From the IMG/VR virus record IMGVR_UViG_3300042857_000007, positions 1-28,944 of that record: DNA of 28,944 nucleotides. One strand, written 5' to 3'. Position numbers and translations under genes: made by a program. Source of the stretch: a virus (Duplodnaviria; Caudoviricetes). This document shows positions 3 through 24,335 of the stretch, one piece after another. The notes below the pieces were generated by a model, which saw nothing but the letters and a program-made list of their open reading frames with translations, made no database searches and was not told the origin of the DNA. The stretch's first letter is position 1, and each line of letters begins with the position of its first letter.

Positions 3-137
3 GCCATCAAGCTGCTGGCCGAGAAGGGCCTGAATGAACTGCCCGGCAGCATGGTGCTGGGCCGCTGGTGCGGTGATCCGTACAAGTGGAACTGGGCCAA
101 CGTGCAGGGCCTGCTGACGGGGCGCTATCACCAATGA
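3..137 (+). CDS. Hypothetical protein, 3' end only (AIKLLAEKGL...GRYHQ*)
   Basis: Open frame from the window edge to TGA at 135-137, with ATGA overlap onto the next gene. Confidence 0.6.
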   Translation, partial: AIKLLAEKGLNELPGSMVLGRWCGDPYKWNWANVQGLLTGRYHQ

Positions 138-418
138 CCAAGTTCACGCCCGCTCAGGTGGCCTATCTTGCCGCCACGGTGGCGTTTGAGGTAGAGTTTG
201 CAAAGAAGGAACGGGAGAGACTGATGGCCAACGGTGCAACCAAGGTGGTGTTCTTTGAGAGTGGCGGTCAGGCGCTGGGTGAGTACCTGATGTACAACCC
301 GCCCGTCACGGGGGATGACGTGACGTGGGGTGAGGCCACCTACACGGTGGTGCGCCGTAATGTGGATGTCTATGACAACATGGTGCGGGTCACGGTCAAG
401 CGGGCTGACAACGCCTGA
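134..418 (+). CDS. Hypothetical protein (MTKFTPAQ...; alternative start MANGATK at 224)
   Basis: ATGA-coupled to the upstream gene; GGGAGA precedes the alternative ATG; phage-like codon usage. Confidence 0.65.
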   Translation: MTKFTPAQVAYLAATVAFEVEFAKKERERLMANGATKVVFFESGGQALGEYLMYNPPVTGDDVTWGEATYTVVRRNVDVYDNMVRVTVKRADNA

Positions 419-434
419 CGGCGGATGCTATGGT
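405..434 (+). promoter_or_regulatory. Putative sigma70-type promoter
   Basis: CTGACA (405-410), 18-nt spacer, TGc-TATGGT (429-434); the same ggatgctatggtg -10 context recurs on the minus strand near 6269-6280. Confidence 0.55.
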
Positions 435-440
435 GACCCT

Positions 441-700
441 GACCCTGCCCACCTACCCGGTTCTGCCGGACGGTGGCCTCTGGGCCGCCCGCAAGTGTGC
501 ATAGCGGCGGTCTGGTAAGCGAGCGGTGTACCGGGCTTGATCACCCGTGAAGCCCACGGCAGGGGCGTTGGTTTATCGGTGGCGTTGACGGAGCGGCCCC
601 AAGGCGGGTGCCTTTTAGCGGATGTCAACCCGCCGATGAAAGGTCTGGCAGGGCCTGCTTGTGTGGCGGACGCGTCAACGGCGAACACCAAGCCTGCCCG
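441..700 (+). ncRNA. Candidate structured non-coding RNA or long structured leader (family not recognised)
   Basis: Nested stems 443-449/558-564, 449-453/472-476, 482-489/506-513, 533-538/550-555, 572-590/623-640 (18 bp, one bulge) and 647-652/693-698; G-U pairs work only on the + strand; directly after a promoter. Confidence 0.55.
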
Positions 701-719
701 TTTTCTCAAGGGGGTGCCC

Positions 720-935
720 GTGTTCCTGCCCGCAGCGCCGCCCGGTGGCGGCTACCTTGTGCTGAACGCGGCGCAGATCAGCAGCCTTGACCTGTTGTGC
801 CTGATCCGCACCGTTTACCCGCACACCCGCATCATTGCCCAGCAGATGATCCCCCTGACGCCAGACACAAAAAGGGCCGCTGCACAGGTTGGTACGGTTG
901 CAGCGGCCAGAGATTGGGGTGAGGTGCCAATTTAG
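720..935 (+). CDS. Hypothetical protein (~71 aa)
   Basis: 3' part of ORF 537..935; GTG start after AAGGGGG; no recognisable motif. Confidence 0.35.
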   Translation: MFLPAAPPGGGYLVLNAAQISSLDLLCLIRTVYPHTRIIAQQMIPLTPDTKRAAAQVGTVAAARDWGEVPI

Positions 936-5497: not shown

Positions 5498-5530
5498 GTT
5501 ATAGCATCCCCTAAGTATCTTTGAAAGCGA
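5498..5530 (-). promoter_or_regulatory. Early promoter family member, probably giving a leaderless mRNA
   Basis: TCGCTTTCAA-N17-TGcTATAAC, with ATG 7 nt downstream of the -10. Confidence 0.65.
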
Positions 5531-6249: not shown

Positions 6250-6732
6250 CTATCCAGTTGACAGGGGCACCATAGCATCCTCTGTGGGGGCTTGTAAAGC
6301 GACCTTGGCCACCGGCACCCGGCGCAGTTCAATCTCGGGGTCAGTAGCTTCCACAACAAAGCCAAAGTCTTCAAACAGGCCGGTCAGCCGCTGCGGGTCA
6401 CAATCAGGCTCATAGTTGCGGATGATGGTGGTGCATTCCATGCCGTCAGCGTCAAGATCAGCCGTCACCACGGCCAGCAGGGCGCGCATGTGGCCTTGGC
6501 CGCGCTTCAGCCGGTCGTTGACGTTGACGTAGACAATGCGGTGGGCCTCACCCACCGCGCCCAGCGCCATGCTGACCAGCGCCGGGTCAACCTGATAGGT
6601 CTGCTGGGTGCGGGGGCCTGACGGCTCAGCCGCCCTTGGGCTTACCGCAGGCGGTTGAACGTCACGCGTCATCAGGGGCGCGCTCTGTGGCGGGTGAAGG
6701 CGGGCAGGGTCATGCGTGAAGGTGGCGGCCAT
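6250..6732 (-). CDS. Putative GNAT-fold acetyltransferase
   Basis: V.V....RGQGHMRALL (motif A, R/QxxGxG/A-like) and L..LFEDFGF (motif B-like). Confidence 0.6.
   Translation of the reverse strand: MAATFTHDPARLHPPQSAPLMTRDVQPPAVSPRAAEPSGPRTQQTYQVDPALVSMALGAVGEAHRIVYVNVNDRLKRGQGHMRALLAVVTADLDADGMECTTIIRNYEPDCDPQRLTGLFEDFGFVVEATDPEIELRRVPVAKVALQAPTEDAMVPLSTG
6269..6302 (-). promoter_or_regulatory. Early promoter family member
   Basis: TCGCTTTACA-N18-TGcTATGGT, lying in the 3' end of the GNAT-like gene. Confidence 0.65.
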
Positions 6733-8951: not shown

Positions 8952-9030
8952 GGGGCCTCAAACCGAATTGTAACACTATAATGCGTATACGTGAGAAGCC
9001 TTTTTGTCAGAGCACAAAAATTTTCATTTC

Positions 9031-9121
9031 AGTGTAAACAGTGTGAACAGTGTGAACAAGGACATAAATAATCATGCGGGCGCAGGGGTTAGGTTTTTCA
9101 CATTCACTTCACACTTCACAC
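9031..9121. repeat. Opposed arrays of short repeats in an AT-rich divergent intergenic region
   Basis: AGTGTAAAC/AGTGTGAAC/AGTGTGAAC (9031-9057) facing TTCACA/TTCAC/TTCACAC/TTCACAC (9097-9121). Confidence 0.8.
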
Positions 9122-9173
9122 ACATACGCATTATAGGGGGTTGGTATCCCCCGGTTGAGGCTAAAGTCCGCTG

Positions 9174-18723: not shown

Positions 18724-21474
18724 ATGGCCAAGCTGAGACTGGGCAAGAAGCTGCACATGAGCCGTGGGGCCACCCATGCGCGCATGCAGTTTCAGGAGGC
18801 CAAACACAAGCGTGACGTGAGCGGCAAGTTCGCTGAGATGCCCGGCCAGATGCCGGGTGCTGACGGCACCACCGCCGCCGCCAAGGTCACGGTGACCCCG
18901 GCCACCACGGCTGATTGGATGGCCGGTGCCAAGACCAGCAAGGTGGGCGGTGATGACCTGATCAAGCTGCACGTGCAGAGCAACCCCAAGAAGCCGGGCA
19001 GCGCGGCGGCTGAGCGCTTTGCCAAGTATCAGGACGGCATGACCGTGGCCGAATACAAGGCGGCCGGGGGCACCGCTGAAGATTTGGCATGGGACCGCAA
19101 GCGTGGCTTTGTGACCTTTCACGATAAGGCCACCTACGCCAGCATCAGCACCAGCGGGGCCAGCCCGGTTGCGCAGATCAACCACGCCACCGCCACCGGG
19201 CGGCTGGCCAGCATCAAGGCGCAGACTGAGGCCAAGGCGGGCGCGGCCACTGAGGCGGTGAAGCCGCCACCGCCTGAGGTGCCCATCAAGGCGTCTGGTG
19301 AGCCGCCTGAGCCGCCAGCACCACCCAAGCCGGTAGAAGCGGCCCCTAAACCGGCCGCTGCGGCCCCAGCCAGCCCCGCCAGCGTGCAGAAGCCGCCAGC
19401 AGGCCCTGAGCCAGCCCCCAAGCCACAGAACGCGCCTACGGGCACGCCTGAGCCTGCCAAGACGTTCTACAAGCCAGCGCCAGCGCCAACGGCGCTCAGT
19501 GATGACACCATGGTCAAGCACTGGGCCAGCAAGCAGCCGGTCACCATGGCTGAGTACAAGGCCAGCCTCGGCACCAATCTGGGCAAGCACACCCCTGACA
19601 GCTTTGTTCAGCAAAGCTTGCAGAATGGCGATCTGAAGGTGGTGACCCCTGCGGCTGTGCCCAAGCAGCCCAAGCCCACTGACCCGGCTGAGACGCTGAC
19701 CTTCAAGAAGGGTGATACGCTGGCCGACACCAAGCTGAACGGCGTTGAGATGCGGCCATGGCAGCCGCCCAAAGACGCCGAGGGCTGGAAGAACGTTGAC
19801 GGCCAGATGCACCTGCCTGATGAGCCGCCCATGCCCACCATGGGCAAGCTGGGCAGTGGCGTGCTGATCAGGGAGCCTGACGGCCGGGTGTGGGTGGTCA
19901 AGCCCACCAATGAGTTTGGCGGCTACAAGCACACCTTCCCCAAGGGCACCATAGACAAGCATGAGGGCCTGTCACCGCAGGCCAACGCTATCAAGGAGAC
20001 CTTTGAAGAAAGCGGCCTGAAGGTGAAGATCACCGGATTTGCCGGTGACTTCCAAGGTGACACGGGCGTGGCGCGCTACTACTACGGCCAGCGCACTGAC
20101 GGCACGCCGCTTGACCACGGGTGGGAGAGCGAGGCCGTTCTGCTGGTGCCGCCCGGCAAACTCAATACCGTCCTCAACAAGAAGCGTGACTTGGACATTG
20201 CCGCCAAGCACCTGCCAGACATCACGCCTGACCCTGACCAGTTGGCGACGCTCAAGGTCAGCGTCAAGCCGCAGACGCCGCATGACGTGCCTGCCGAGAC
20301 GGGGCGCTGGGGCAAGGCGGCCAGCGTCAAGGCGTCTGTGGCCACGGCGGCCCCGCCCCAGAACTGGGACACCAGTTCTGTGATGACTGACGTGCAGAAG
20401 CAGGAGATGCGCTATGTGCGTGACGCCACCGGCCTGAAGTACCATAGCGGAGATGACAATGAGGCCGTGGGCTTCTACACCTATGACGGCCATGAGGATA
20501 TCAACGGCGGCCTGCGCGTGGGTGGCACGCTCAGCCCTGAGGCCGCGCAGCATGTGAAGACGCTTGACGGCATGATGGCTGAGACGGCCAATGACGTGGT
20601 GGTGTGGCGCGGCATGAAGAGTGCCGGTCTAAATGGCGAGTTCAACACATTCAACACAATGCCACCGCCCATGGAGTTCGTTGACCCGGCCTATGGCAGC
20701 ACCAGCATCAACCCTGCGGTGGCGCACCAGTTTGCCGGTGGCCACATGGGCAAGACAGTGGTGTTCAAGGTGCGCGTGCCCAAGGGCACCAAGGCCATGA
20801 GCGTTGGCCGTGAGGGTGACGTGCGTGAGGGTCTGCTGGATGAGGCTGAAATAGTGCTGGCACGCGGCACGCGCTACAAGTACGTGACCACGCACACCAA
20901 TCAGACCGTTGCTGGGGAAAACGTCAACGTCATTGAGTTGACCGTGGTCAGCAACAACGGCGCGCCTGTAACGCAGCAGATCAAGCTGCCCAAGAAGATG
21001 CCGGATAACCACCGCTATGAGGCTGATGAACTGGTTGATCTGCCCGCCGCCAAGGTGGCTGATGAAGGCGCGGCGGGCCTGAAGTGGGAGTACGAGAAAG
21101 AGTACCACCAGTACGGCGGCCACTCATGGGTCACCAGCCAAGGTGGCACCGGCATCACCAATCAGGCAGACTTCAACAAGCGCTATGCTGAAGCGCCCCT
21201 GACCTATCTCACCAATGATCAATACGATAATCTTGGCTACACCAGCATCAACACTAAGAAGTTGCCCACCTTTGCCAGCGTGGCACCGGGCCTGAAGCAG
21301 CGTAACCGTGACCCCGATGCCATGCGTGACCGCATGCTGAGCGATGACGGCGTGACCACGCCGCCCATAGTGCTGCGTAAGAACGGCAAGCTGCGGCTGA
21401 TGGCTGGCCAGAGCCGCATCTGGGTTGGCTTGGCCACTGGTTACAGGGTGCCTGTCAAGGTACTGGAGGTCTGA
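18724..21474 (+). CDS. Multidomain protein A: NPKK module + Nudix hydrolase + R-S-E ADP-ribosyltransferase (VIP2/Alt-like) + ParB/Srx-like C-terminus
   Basis: Nudix box FPKGTIDKHEGLSPQANAIKETFEESGL (~19935-20019); ART YT....INGGLR, VWRG, YGSTS, VPKGT, DEAEIVLARG (~20470-20950); C-terminal PPIVL.....LMAGQSR.......VPV. Confidence 0.88.
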   Translation: MAKLRLGKKLHMSRGATHARMQFQEAKHKRDVSGKFAEMPGQMPGADGTTAAAKVTVTPATTADWMAGAKTSKVGGDDLIKLHVQSNPKKPGSAAAERFAKYQDGMTVAEYKAAGGTAEDLAWDRKRGFVTFHDKATYASISTSGASPVAQINHATATGRLASIKAQTEAKAGAATEAVKPPPPEVPIKASGEPPEPPAPPKPVEAAPKPAAAAPASPASVQKPPAGPEPAPKPQNAPTGTPEPAKTFYKPAPAPTALSDDTMVKHWASKQPVTMAEYKASLGTNLGKHTPDSFVQQSLQNGDLKVVTPAAVPKQPKPTDPAETLTFKKGDTLADTKLNGVEMRPWQPPKDAEGWKNVDGQMHLPDEPPMPTMGKLGSGVLIREPDGRVWVVKPTNEFGGYKHTFPKGTIDKHEGLSPQANAIKETFEESGLKVKITGFAGDFQGDTGVARYYYGQRTDGTPLDHGWESEAVLLVPPGKLNTVLNKKRDLDIAAKHLPDITPDPDQLATLKVSVKPQTPHDVPAETGRWGKAASVKASVATAAPPQNWDTSSVMTDVQKQEMRYVRDATGLKYHSGDDNEAVGFYTYDGHEDINGGLRVGGTLSPEAAQHVKTLDGMMAETANDVVVWRGMKSAGLNGEFNTFNTMPPPMEFVDPAYGSTSINPAVAHQFAGGHMGKTVVFKVRVPKGTKAMSVGREGDVREGLLDEAEIVLARGTRYKYVTTHTNQTVAGENVNVIELTVVSNNGAPVTQQIKLPKKMPDNHRYEADELVDLPAAKVADEGAAGLKWEYEKEYHQYGGHSWVTSQGGTGITNQADFNKRYAEAPLTYLTNDQYDNLGYTSINTKKLPTFASVAPGLKQRNRDPDAMRDRMLSDDGVTTPPIVLRKNGKLRLMAGQSRIWVGLATGYRVPVKVLEV

Positions 21475-24335
21475 TGCCCGGCCTGAAGCTGAAGCTGAAG
21501 ACAGCTACCAAGATTTCAAAGGGTGCCCACGGCGTCAAGATCAAGTGGGACATGAACAAGCACAAGCGCGACCAGATGACTGGGCGCTTTGTCAACAAGC
21601 CCGGCTCTGAGGAGTTCAAGGCTGAGCCTTTCGGCCCCGGCAAGACGGGCAACATCAAGGGCACCGATGTCATCAAGCTGCACGTGACCAGCAACCCCAA
21701 GAAGCCGGGGTCAAAGGCCAATGCAGACTTTGAGAATTACAAGGATGACATGACGGTAGCCGAGTTCAAGGCCGCCGTGGGCAACAACACCAAGGCCAAC
21801 GAGCACCTGACCTATGACACCAAGAAGGGCTTCATCACCATACACGACCCGGCCACGCTGCCCGCCAAGCCGCTGGCCCAGCCTGAGCCGCCGCCGCCAC
21901 CCAAGCTGACCACGGCCGAGTACGCCATCACCAGCAAGACCAAGAACCTGCAACCGCACGACAAGATCAAGCTGCTGGCCGGGCACAACCCCAAGAAGCC
22001 GGGCAGCAAGTCTGCGGCCCTGTTCTCAAACTACAAGGATGAGATGACGGTAGCTGAGTTCCACGCCGCCATTGGCAACAAGAAGGCCAGTCAGGAGACG
22101 TTGCTCTACGACCTCAAGAAGGGCTTCATCAGCGTGCACAACGGCGCTGATCTGGCTGACATGCAGAGCGGCAAGCTAAGCCCCGGCAAGCTGGCGGCGC
22201 ACATGCAGACAGGTGACAAGGCCCTTGGCGTGGTCAGCAAGAACCCGTTCACCGCAGGCACCAAGAATTATCAGGACTTTGAGGACGCCGCCTTTGACCA
22301 AGGTTTGGTCACGCAGGCCAAGGTGACGGCCAGCGTTGACCCGGCCACGGGCGCGCCCAAGCCCAAGCTGGCTGATCTGGATGACAATGACATCATCACC
22401 AGCCAGACCGGGGCAACCTACAACGCAAGCCTGCTGAAGAGTGACCCGGACCCTGTCTTCAAGAAGGTGGTGGATGACAATCTTGCCAGTGGCAAGTGGA
22501 CCGTCAAGCCCAAGCCCGTTACACTTATGGATACTGACAAGGTATCCGTGAAGGGCGGCAGCATGATCAGCAGCACCAAGTACACCGTGGCTGAATACAA
22601 GGCCATCACCGGCATGACTGACGCGCAGGTGCAAAGCGCCCTGAGCGCTGGCAAGCTGCACCTGCACCCGCCTGAGGCTGGCGCGCCCGCGCCCAAGCCC
22701 GCCACGCCCACGCCTGCGCCCGCGCCCAAGCCGCTGCCCAAGCAAAGCGTTGAAGATGACACCGTGGTGCAGACCATGGGCGGCACCGTCTACACGGCGG
22801 CTGAGTACAAGGCCAAGTGGAAGGCCAACGGCCTGTCAGATGAAGATGTGATCAACAAGCTGAACAACAACATCGCCAGTGGCGTACTTGTGGTCAAGAC
22901 CAAGAGCAAGTTTGCTGACAATGACGTGGTTGAGACGTACTTTGGGAATAAATACACCATAGCCCAATTGAAGGCCAAGTATCCGCATCACACTGATGAT
23001 GATATTCAGGAGCAGCTTGACAACGGTGACCTGTCATTTGTGGCCAAGCAGCCCCCGCCGCCCCAGCCCAAGTCTACACCCACGCTTGACGCCCTGCATG
23101 ATGATGATGTCATCGTCAACAGCATGGGCGTGGTCATGATGTCAGCGGGTGGGGCCAAGAAGCTTGAGACAGCCTCAAAGACTGCCGTTGAAGATGCGCT
23201 GGCCAGCGGCGCATGGAAGAAAGAAGGGGCCTCCCCAGCTGCGCTGACCAAGCTGTCACAGATACCCAAGGCTGAGTGGGACACCCATGACGTTGCCACC
23301 ATCACGGCGGCCAACCCCTACCCGGCAAATTCTGAGGCGTGGATCAAGTTCAAGAAAATCCATAATACATCAAGCGGCACTCAGAGCATGAGTGTGACAA
23401 AATACATGTCATCCACCACCAACGTGGGCACGCAAGAGGCGGTGCTTGATAAGATGGTGGCTGACGGTCACGTCAAGTTTGTCACGCCCGCGCAGAAGAC
23501 CGCCGTGCAGGCGCAGAAGGCCCTGTTACAGCAACAGGCCGCTGCTGAGGCCACCAAGAAGGCGGCTGCCACAGCCGCTGCGCAGAAGACCAAGTGGAAT
23601 GCGCATTTCCAAGTGGTGAAAGAAAAGTCCATAGCCCAGTTCACTGATGACCCCACGTGGGGCAGCAAGCCGGGCAACATGCTGCCCAGCCAAGTCAAGC
23701 AGAGCGGTATGGTGGCCGTCAAAAACATCATGGGCCTGAAGTACCACAGCAACAGCAAGTACGCTGGCGTGGCTTGGTATACCAACGGCGGCTACAGCGC
23801 GGCTAATGAAAAGCTGCGCAACCCCAAGCTGGGTCATGCCCATTTGAACAGTGAGCAGAAGGGCCACGTCAAGGAACTTGACAGCTTGATGTCTGAAACC
23901 AAAGAAGACGTGGTGATGTGGCGTGGTATCAGCGAAAGCAGTGATACGGTGCCTACGGCCGATGCGCAGGGCAACATGAACAACATGCCACCACCGTTTG
24001 AGTTTGTTGACGGCGGCTATGCCAGCATGAGTTTCAACCCACGGGTGTCTGATAGCTTCAAGGGTTATTCCACCACGCACGCCAGCGGCAGCACCTATTC
24101 ACAAACGGGCAAGCGCCGCACGCTGTTCAAGATGCGTATACCCAAGGGCAGCAAGGCGGCGTTTGTGGGCCGCAAGTATAGTCAGGACTTGGCTATGGAA
24201 GATGAGGCTGAGGTGATCACGGCGCGGGGCACGCGCTTCAAGTACATCAGCACCACGCGTGATGTGGATTTCTATGGTGCCAAGTATGACATCATTGAAC
24301 TGGAGATTGTGAACCACGCTGGCGGCAATATCTGA
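21474..24335 (+). CDS. Multidomain protein B: repeated NPKK and related modules + C-terminal R-S-E ADP-ribosyltransferase
   Basis: ART WYTNGGYSAANEKLR, MWRG, YASMS, IPKGS, EDEAEVITARG (~23770-24335); TGATG-coupled to protein A. Confidence 0.88.
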   Translation: MPGLKLKLKTATKISKGAHGVKIKWDMNKHKRDQMTGRFVNKPGSEEFKAEPFGPGKTGNIKGTDVIKLHVTSNPKKPGSKANADFENYKDDMTVAEFKAAVGNNTKANEHLTYDTKKGFITIHDPATLPAKPLAQPEPPPPPKLTTAEYAITSKTKNLQPHDKIKLLAGHNPKKPGSKSAALFSNYKDEMTVAEFHAAIGNKKASQETLLYDLKKGFISVHNGADLADMQSGKLSPGKLAAHMQTGDKALGVVSKNPFTAGTKNYQDFEDAAFDQGLVTQAKVTASVDPATGAPKPKLADLDDNDIITSQTGATYNASLLKSDPDPVFKKVVDDNLASGKWTVKPKPVTLMDTDKVSVKGGSMISSTKYTVAEYKAITGMTDAQVQSALSAGKLHLHPPEAGAPAPKPATPTPAPAPKPLPKQSVEDDTVVQTMGGTVYTAAEYKAKWKANGLSDEDVINKLNNNIASGVLVVKTKSKFADNDVVETYFGNKYTIAQLKAKYPHHTDDDIQEQLDNGDLSFVAKQPPPPQPKSTPTLDALHDDDVIVNSMGVVMMSAGGAKKLETASKTAVEDALASGAWKKEGASPAALTKLSQIPKAEWDTHDVATITAANPYPANSEAWIKFKKIHNTSSGTQSMSVTKYMSSTTNVGTQEAVLDKMVADGHVKFVTPAQKTAVQAQKALLQQQAAAEATKKAAATAAAQKTKWNAHFQVVKEKSIAQFTDDPTWGSKPGNMLPSQVKQSGMVAVKNIMGLKYHSNSKYAGVAWYTNGGYSAANEKLRNPKLGHAHLNSEQKGHVKELDSLMSETKEDVVMWRGISESSDTVPTADAQGNMNNMPPPFEFVDGGYASMSFNPRVSDSFKGYSTTHASGSTYSQTGKRRTLFKMRIPKGSKAAFVGRKYSQDLAMEDEAEVITARGTRFKYISTTRDVDFYGAKYDIIELEIVNHAGGNI

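Follow-up and report, generated by a model that had tools for sequence, protein, structure and literature searches.

Does the stretch between two small rightward genes of this phage genome specify an RNA and, if so, how much of the stretch belongs to it? The window analysed here, 28,944 bases, is the entire virus record and includes genes for terminase, portal, head and adaptor proteins. No catalogued phage has a head protein more than 61% identical to the one encoded here, and the sequence is present in DNA runs from soil and sediment, with no RNA run among those listed. Independent DNA runs agree with the letters of the window, with no variants seen over 395-740. The RNA region is flanked by a small gene at 137-418 and an ORF at 720-935, both rightward, and leftward early genes face them. 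For this interval the earlier note had proposed a highly base-paired RNA of ~260 nt with switchable pairing, either a novel phage ncRNA (a decoy or antitoxin mimic) or an attenuator of 720..935. The analysis below narrows that vague proposal of a long RNA to one that is short enough to synthesize and that occurs in four natural versions.

Several features elsewhere in the window were recorded in passing. Two adjacent large head-module proteins (18724-21474 and 21474-24335, both +) each carry an ADP-ribosyltransferase domain (PF03496), which in the first of them lies beside a NUDIX domain. An AT-rich segment with several short direct and inverted repeats lies upstream of the small terminase gene (8960-9140) and is a possible genome end or packaging site. 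The strongest folding window of the genome, 5441-5520 (z about −10), contains two perfect hairpins directly behind a promoter-like site at 5501(−).

Transcription of the interval would start at a sigma70-type extended −10 promoter-like site found by a promoter scan at 405-434 (+), with a predicted start at 441-442. It is one of 4 GATGCTAT sites: TGCTAT occurs only four times in the 28.9-kb genome, each time after GA, and the copy at 6298-6269(−) (listed at 6272(−)), which the scan also picked, has an identical −10 box. Because of these four GA-preceded sites and the shared −10 box, 405-434 is better than a lone consensus match, and the sigma70-like promoter described previously holds up as a prediction of a site type that is used four times in the genome. 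Its style is one we take to be alphaproteobacterial, and this style, together with an MmgR sRNA found beside a homolog of ORF 720 (see below), points to an alphaproteobacterium as the probable host. The −35 region is overlapped by the 3′ end of the gene at 137..418 (+), a gene of unassigned function with homologs in 5 IMG/VR loci and in a syntenic relative (G004), a coding score of 0.34, and no matches in Pfam or PHROG. A 24-codon candidate ORF at 430-504 begins within the −10 box; its score of 0.137 falls between the values for coding and for off-frame sequence. Farther along, the non-coding stretch 936-1003, conserved in G004 (inside a 73% block), contains 10 bases that repeat promoter bases 413-422 perfectly in inverted orientation; it may be a regulator site.

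All of the helices named in the earlier note are present in this interval at the coordinates given. As a whole, however, the stretch does not show the unusual degree of pairing that had been claimed: 435-710 folds with z −0.35, and 72 of 200 shuffles fold as well. Its first domain (441-566, +; closing helix 443-449/558-564 plus hairpins) is a possible fold with z −0.96. The long bulged hairpin behind it (572-640, +) is stable, with pair probabilities of about 1 in every context tried, and 570-642, with boundaries chosen by eye, is the only part that beats its shuffles (z −3.9, 0 of 200); in a genome-wide scan of 80-nt windows, in which 25 of 722 windows had z <= −3, this hairpin ranks 20th of 722. 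For 441-640 none of the searches gave a homolog, and no contig bearing the motif described below has a counterpart; an exact 18-mer of domain 1 had no match in IMG/VR. The ORFs here had been called unconvincing, and indeed no frame of 435-716 scores as coding. TCG and CGA in the long stem, previously read as a signal, do not depart convincingly from expectation (4 seen vs 1.6 expected, P 0.08), two of the 4 being both sides of a single base-paired site. The reported absence of known RNAs was upheld by ARAGORN (0 tRNA or tmRNA genes) and by Rfam 15 at the gathering score (0 matches in the window). At an E-value threshold, the stretch was covered only by a 13.5-bit chance match, and the best sub-threshold Rfam matches in the window and in the contigs carrying the motif had 13-26 bits, none covering the motif coherently.

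Conservation was found in the third domain. A BLAST search of 400-720 against G004 matched bases 640-703 at a different locus (50 of 68 identical, E 1e-3 per genome), and a gapped pattern built from the window and G004 copies gave 5 matches in IMG/VR. Three of these were kept as real copies (L027, L029 and L030, the last being that of G004), and two, which lie inside ORFs and do not have bases 689-692, were dropped; these bases are kept in all copies though not fixed by the pattern. The resulting set comprises four sequences, with one copy per contig. L029 and L030 are close kin, and L027 comes from an unrelated complete 40-kb podophage (G007). A further locus, L008, is identical to the window and adds no support. 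Two covariance-model matches inside coding frames (L025:753-816 and L048) were rejected.

We conclude that 641-698 (+) is an uncatalogued phage RNA motif of 58 nt. Rfam searches over 113.5 kb of the three carrier contigs gave no family match and no ribozyme, and likenesses to 5S rRNA, SRP, twister, pistol, hairpin, fluoride and SAH RNAs were considered and dropped, there being no Rfam match. BLAST of the region or the motif copies against phage and plasmid records gave chance-level matches only, and a full-text literature search for the 12 invariant bases of the motif returned only papers with unrelated titles. The motif was not found in the supplement of PMC10085705, and no 9-mer of it matched the portion covered of the PMC10879173 supplements. 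PMC10690425 describes over ten thousand viral RNA candidates; its files that were covered gave no match, and its three remaining large files may contain the motif. The novel ncRNA of the earlier note thus survives as its third domain, a conserved uncatalogued RNA structure, and not as a 260-nt unit.

The predicted fold of the motif is an H-type pseudoknot formed by two crossing helices on the + strand, S1 (641-644/653-656) and S2 (647-652/693-698), with a 2-nt first loop (645-646), no second loop and a long third loop. Within the third loop lie a variable hairpin region (668-680) and an invariant 12-mer (681-692) that is identical in the four copies; a 3-bp hairpin, P3 (657-659/665-667), has U.G, C-G or U-A as its third pair. 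S2, the helix of the third domain in the earlier note, forms all six pairs (6/6) in three of the copies (window, L027, L029) and all but one (5/6) in L030; at 2 pairs both sides have changed. Its 3′ strand lay outside the search pattern, and the chance of a 6/6 pairing is 0.0024. All 9 pattern matches in GTDB were rejected, as S2 pairs only 2-4/6 in these chance matches. Comparison of the copies shows S2 to be kept by compensatory changes, and the expectation that homologs would conserve pairs rather than codons was borne out for the third domain only.

S1 can pair in all four copies and shows one A-U to G.U change, being otherwise invariant. Because three of its four pairs were fixed by the search pattern, S1 and the pseudoknot rest on this invariance and on the one A-U to G.U change. 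S1 and S2 together have 39 of 40 cells paired, vs 30-48% when the partners are slid; 21 of 500 shuffles attain this score, so that for sequences that are related it is not a strong one. With RNAalifold, an alignment in which one row was cut short yielded no covarying structure, and nested folding of the copies was no better than that of shuffles (z +0.43 for 641-700, −0.42 and −1.55); it favours other hairpins over S2 in L027 and gives S2 a probability of about 0.01 in the window, but nested models cannot score pseudoknots. We infer that S1 forms together with S2 and that 641-698 probably folds as the modelled pseudoknot. The strong hairpin at 572-640 may insulate the motif behind it; apart from this hairpin, the leader outside 641-698 is unremarkable.

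The four phage contigs place the motif in three different gene positions. In the window it lies 21 nt upstream of ORF 720; in L029 and L030 it lies between a PF23977 gene and a primase gene; and in L027 it follows the 3′ end of an ORF and is itself followed by a terminator-like hairpin, beyond which there is no co-oriented gene. A pyrimidine-rich tract with 4 consecutive U (699-707, +), weak as a terminator tail and not called by the terminator scan, follows the motif in the window, and a pyrimidine-rich stretch also lies behind each of the three homologs. These three unrelated contexts are not the constant place 5′ of related genes, with an expression platform, that marks a riboswitch or attenuator. 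So varied a placement speaks against a switch tied to one gene and favours an autonomous, self-folding module that acts on its own transcript.

A feature shared by the contexts is a stop codon, which ends 8, 8, 2 and 1 nt before S1 across the four copies; in the window it is only the end of a 5-codon mini-ORF. It is conceivable that the motif acts on the ribosome at the stop codon, by pausing, re-initiation or coupling, or else is a DNA-level site; replication origins often lie before primase genes, and in two contigs a primase gene comes after the site. The spacing to the stop codon varies, however, and in L029 and L030 the stop is not followed by any continuing open frame. Only one of the three contexts is a replication locus, and the G.U pairs favour the + strand as RNA. 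We regard either version of this explanation as improbable.

ORF 720..935 (+), which lies behind the motif in the window and was the attenuator's proposed target in the earlier note, is a real small gene of an unnamed family, with a conserved core at about 720-860. Its family has 32 database matches, including the window's own protein, and 47 representatives at E <= 0.001. Divergence in this gene is synonymous in pattern: among 13 differences listed over 721-850 from a contig that is 82% alike, 8 fall at third codon positions, and 3 more fall at first positions of leucine codons (frame read by hand). The family proteins have about 45-60 aa and a conserved PPGGG-Y/F-LVL start, and a G-rich run resembling a ribosome-binding site lies ahead of the ORF at 708-714. 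Searches of Pfam, PDB and the Atlas gave no matches, and the gene was not found in GTDB; a suspected likeness to a receiver-domain fragment found no support in Pfam or PDB. Within the ORF, on the − strand, lies a terminator-like hairpin with a T-tract (868..908; inverted repeat 875-884/899-908), which the terminator scan did not call; G004 (locus L010) has a similar one, and it presumably serves the converging early genes.

What lies ahead of ORF 720 homologs differs from phage to phage. The slot holds three small ORFs in G004. On a 1.25-kb metagenome contig, the MmgR/suhB sRNA (RF00519, 49.9 bits, L009:299-384, +) lies directly before the homolog and is possibly a phage-borne copy of a host sRNA. 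In a third case, a tRNA-like element (L013:2761-2882, +) precedes the homolog by ~120 nt and is followed as well by terminase genes; it has a 7-bp closing stem, segments like a D-arm and a T-arm, a long insert and no Rfam match at the gathering score, and L014 and L015 carry the same 1.5 kb around it without a difference. Among the loci with the upstream gene (L001-L005, L016-L021) or with ORF 720 (L009-L015), none has the RNA in this slot. The differing contents indicate that the slot is variable and that the gene does not need the 641-698 RNA. An attenuator specific to 720..935, as had been suggested, is therefore unlikely, given the G004 gene without the motif at that slot and the other contexts of the motif (before a primase gene in two contigs and with no co-oriented gene in the third).

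These results also bear on the proposal that the whole of 441-707 is one phage ncRNA or a switchable attenuator of ORF 720. In its favour, the predicted start at 441-442 abuts helix 443-449, the MmgR/suhB copy shows that the slot can hold sRNAs, and the two mutually exclusive pairings of the proposed switch come within 1 kcal/mol of each other in the model. This near-equality is the part of the switch that stands; its partner is missing from all 3 homologs, and such partners are common by chance, 8% of similar GC-rich 7-mers having a perfect complement in the 300 nt upstream. Together with the ordinary folding of 435-710, the lack of homologs for 441-640 and the small ORFs that occupy the slot in G004, this makes one long RNA the least probable of the explanations considered here. 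Nothing favoured an antitoxin mimic, the motif being single-copy and without repeats. Type III antitoxins are tandem repeats of a 34-57-nt pseudoknot unit, and no such repeat is present in 380-1060. What had been observed in the interval is thus partly confirmed, and its interpretation is partly supported.

For the motif itself, the 12 invariant unpaired bases exceed what a passive barrier would need and hint at catalysis or binding. Binding was considered in the form of a protein operator, a decoy or a ligand aptamer, possibly one that copies or mimics the start region of the host gene rpsT (S20). A covariance model from the four copies, run on 151 genomes from the class to which an Acetobacteraceae MAG belongs, gave 2 matches, one of which was rejected as lying in a coding frame. 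The best match (E 3.8e-4 per genome) is an rpsT leader (L047:1501-1562 in G053), in which codons 2-5 equal 11 of the 12 invariant bases and, around the start codon, S2 pairs 6/6 and S1, which was not in the model, pairs 4/4. The E. coli rpsO operator is likewise described as a pseudoknot, enclosing the SD and the start codon (PMC10931766). A clade-wide structure at the start of rpsT was not seen, however: among the 46 leaders examined, with one locus from an unpublished genome left out, the motif was found in only 1 of the 45 placed. All 10 pairs formed in 2 of the 45 (shuffle mean 0.33, maximum 2), and a relaxed pattern matched 2 of 401 genomes, the second match being in a coding frame. PMC10931766 also states that neither a conserved structure of an rpsT operator nor an affinity of S20 for the mRNA is known, and the podophage copy has no gene to regulate. 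We consider a binding element improbable.

Catalysis is the other function at which the invariant bases hint, and a small self-cleaving ribozyme that cuts transcripts at gene boundaries, whether from a class not yet described or as a distant form of the HDV fold, is possible but unlikely. The size (58-61 nt), the pseudoknotted or multi-stem fold, the invariant unpaired bases and the covariation match the selection criteria given in PMC10085705, and the gene context is arbitrary. Against this, ten non-hammerhead motifs picked on such criteria did not cleave, according to that paper, and no Rfam ribozyme occurs in the window or the carrier contigs. We compared the copies with an HDV/theta layout taken from two rows of the PMC10879173 supplement and then loosened; self-cleavage in that family depends on a catalytic C. 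A P2 of 6-7 bp after a J4/2 that starts with C is represented in all four copies by S2 and bases 688-692, and the P3 of 3 bp followed by U and P1.1 fits L027 and, by eye, the window, but is interrupted by a C.A mismatch in both L029 and L030. If a P1 of 4 bp is allowed, an HDV-like parse with a C-N-R-A-type junction is obtained for L027, and the window appears similar by eye; L029 gives no parse even then. With a P1 of 6-7 bp, there were 0 parses in L027, L029 and L030, and none of the 6 listed among 9 such parses in the window is in the motif register. The motif is not filed as HDV-like because the layout fails on P1 length and, in L029, altogether. The more specific proposal, that it is the first of a new self-cleaving class with a catalytic 12-mer in its long loop, cutting behind stop codons in unrelated phages, is unlikely to a somewhat greater degree. 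Only about a dozen ribozyme classes are known, according to PMC13635239, and a self-cleaving motif would add one more.

Our tentative preference, held at somewhat less than even confidence, is that 641-698 is a portable cis boundary element, predicted to protect or delimit pieces of phage transcripts. S1 and S2 would close a compact H-type pseudoknot onto whose helices the invariant 12-mer would pack through tertiary contacts. By stalling exonucleases or directing processing, the folded knot would give a separate protected end to whichever RNA follows it: the 720 gene, the primase gene or, where a terminator comes next, a 3′ fragment. For the window this would place the motif at the 3′ side of a leader of roughly 280 nt that begins at the predicted promoter (405-434). 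We weight this reading as we do because knots that block exonucleases are known and RNase J1 is among the enzymes that compact knots can stop, xrRNAs being resistant to it (PMC7603331). Whichever explanation applies, unrelated phages reuse one uncatalogued RNA module at different gene boundaries.

Among known systems, MmgR/suhB (RF00519) shares with the motif the slot before an ORF 720 homolog in L009, but the window has no sequence or model match to that family. The preQ1-II riboswitch is an H-type pseudoknot with a hairpin in its long loop, and ToxI is a type III antitoxin; both resemble the predicted topology of the motif in their short first loop, missing second loop and A-rich end of the long loop. 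The motif differs from them in that it has no Rfam match, is not in tandem, and has neither a shared downstream gene nor an overlap with a ribosome-binding site. With the rpsO (S15) operator (PMC10931766), it shares a long-loop pseudoknot, predicted in the case of the motif, and the lone rpsT look-alike would enclose the SD and AUG in the same way; the phage motif, however, loops without a start codon and has no class-wide rpsT counterpart (1 of 45). HDV-like and theta ribozymes (PMC10879173, PMC13635239) are likewise small, phage-borne and pseudoknotted, with a terminal 6-bp helix after a junction like the motif's C-N-R-A-like one; a 3-bp P3 followed by U is a further possible likeness. No motif copy has a 6-7-bp P1 or a tRNA nearby, however, and the would-be variable P4/L4 region is invariant. 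The xrRNAs, which block 5′-3′ exonucleases through a ring-like fold, are known from eukaryotic RNA viruses (PMC7603331), whereas 641-698 has no Rfam xrRNA match. The likeness lies in a compact pseudoknotted fold, predicted for 641-698, within untranslated regions, with the role of nuclease barrier being a proposal for 641-698. If the motif is such a barrier, bacterial viruses would have their own equivalent of xrRNAs, and the motif would offer a compact means of stabilising mRNA.
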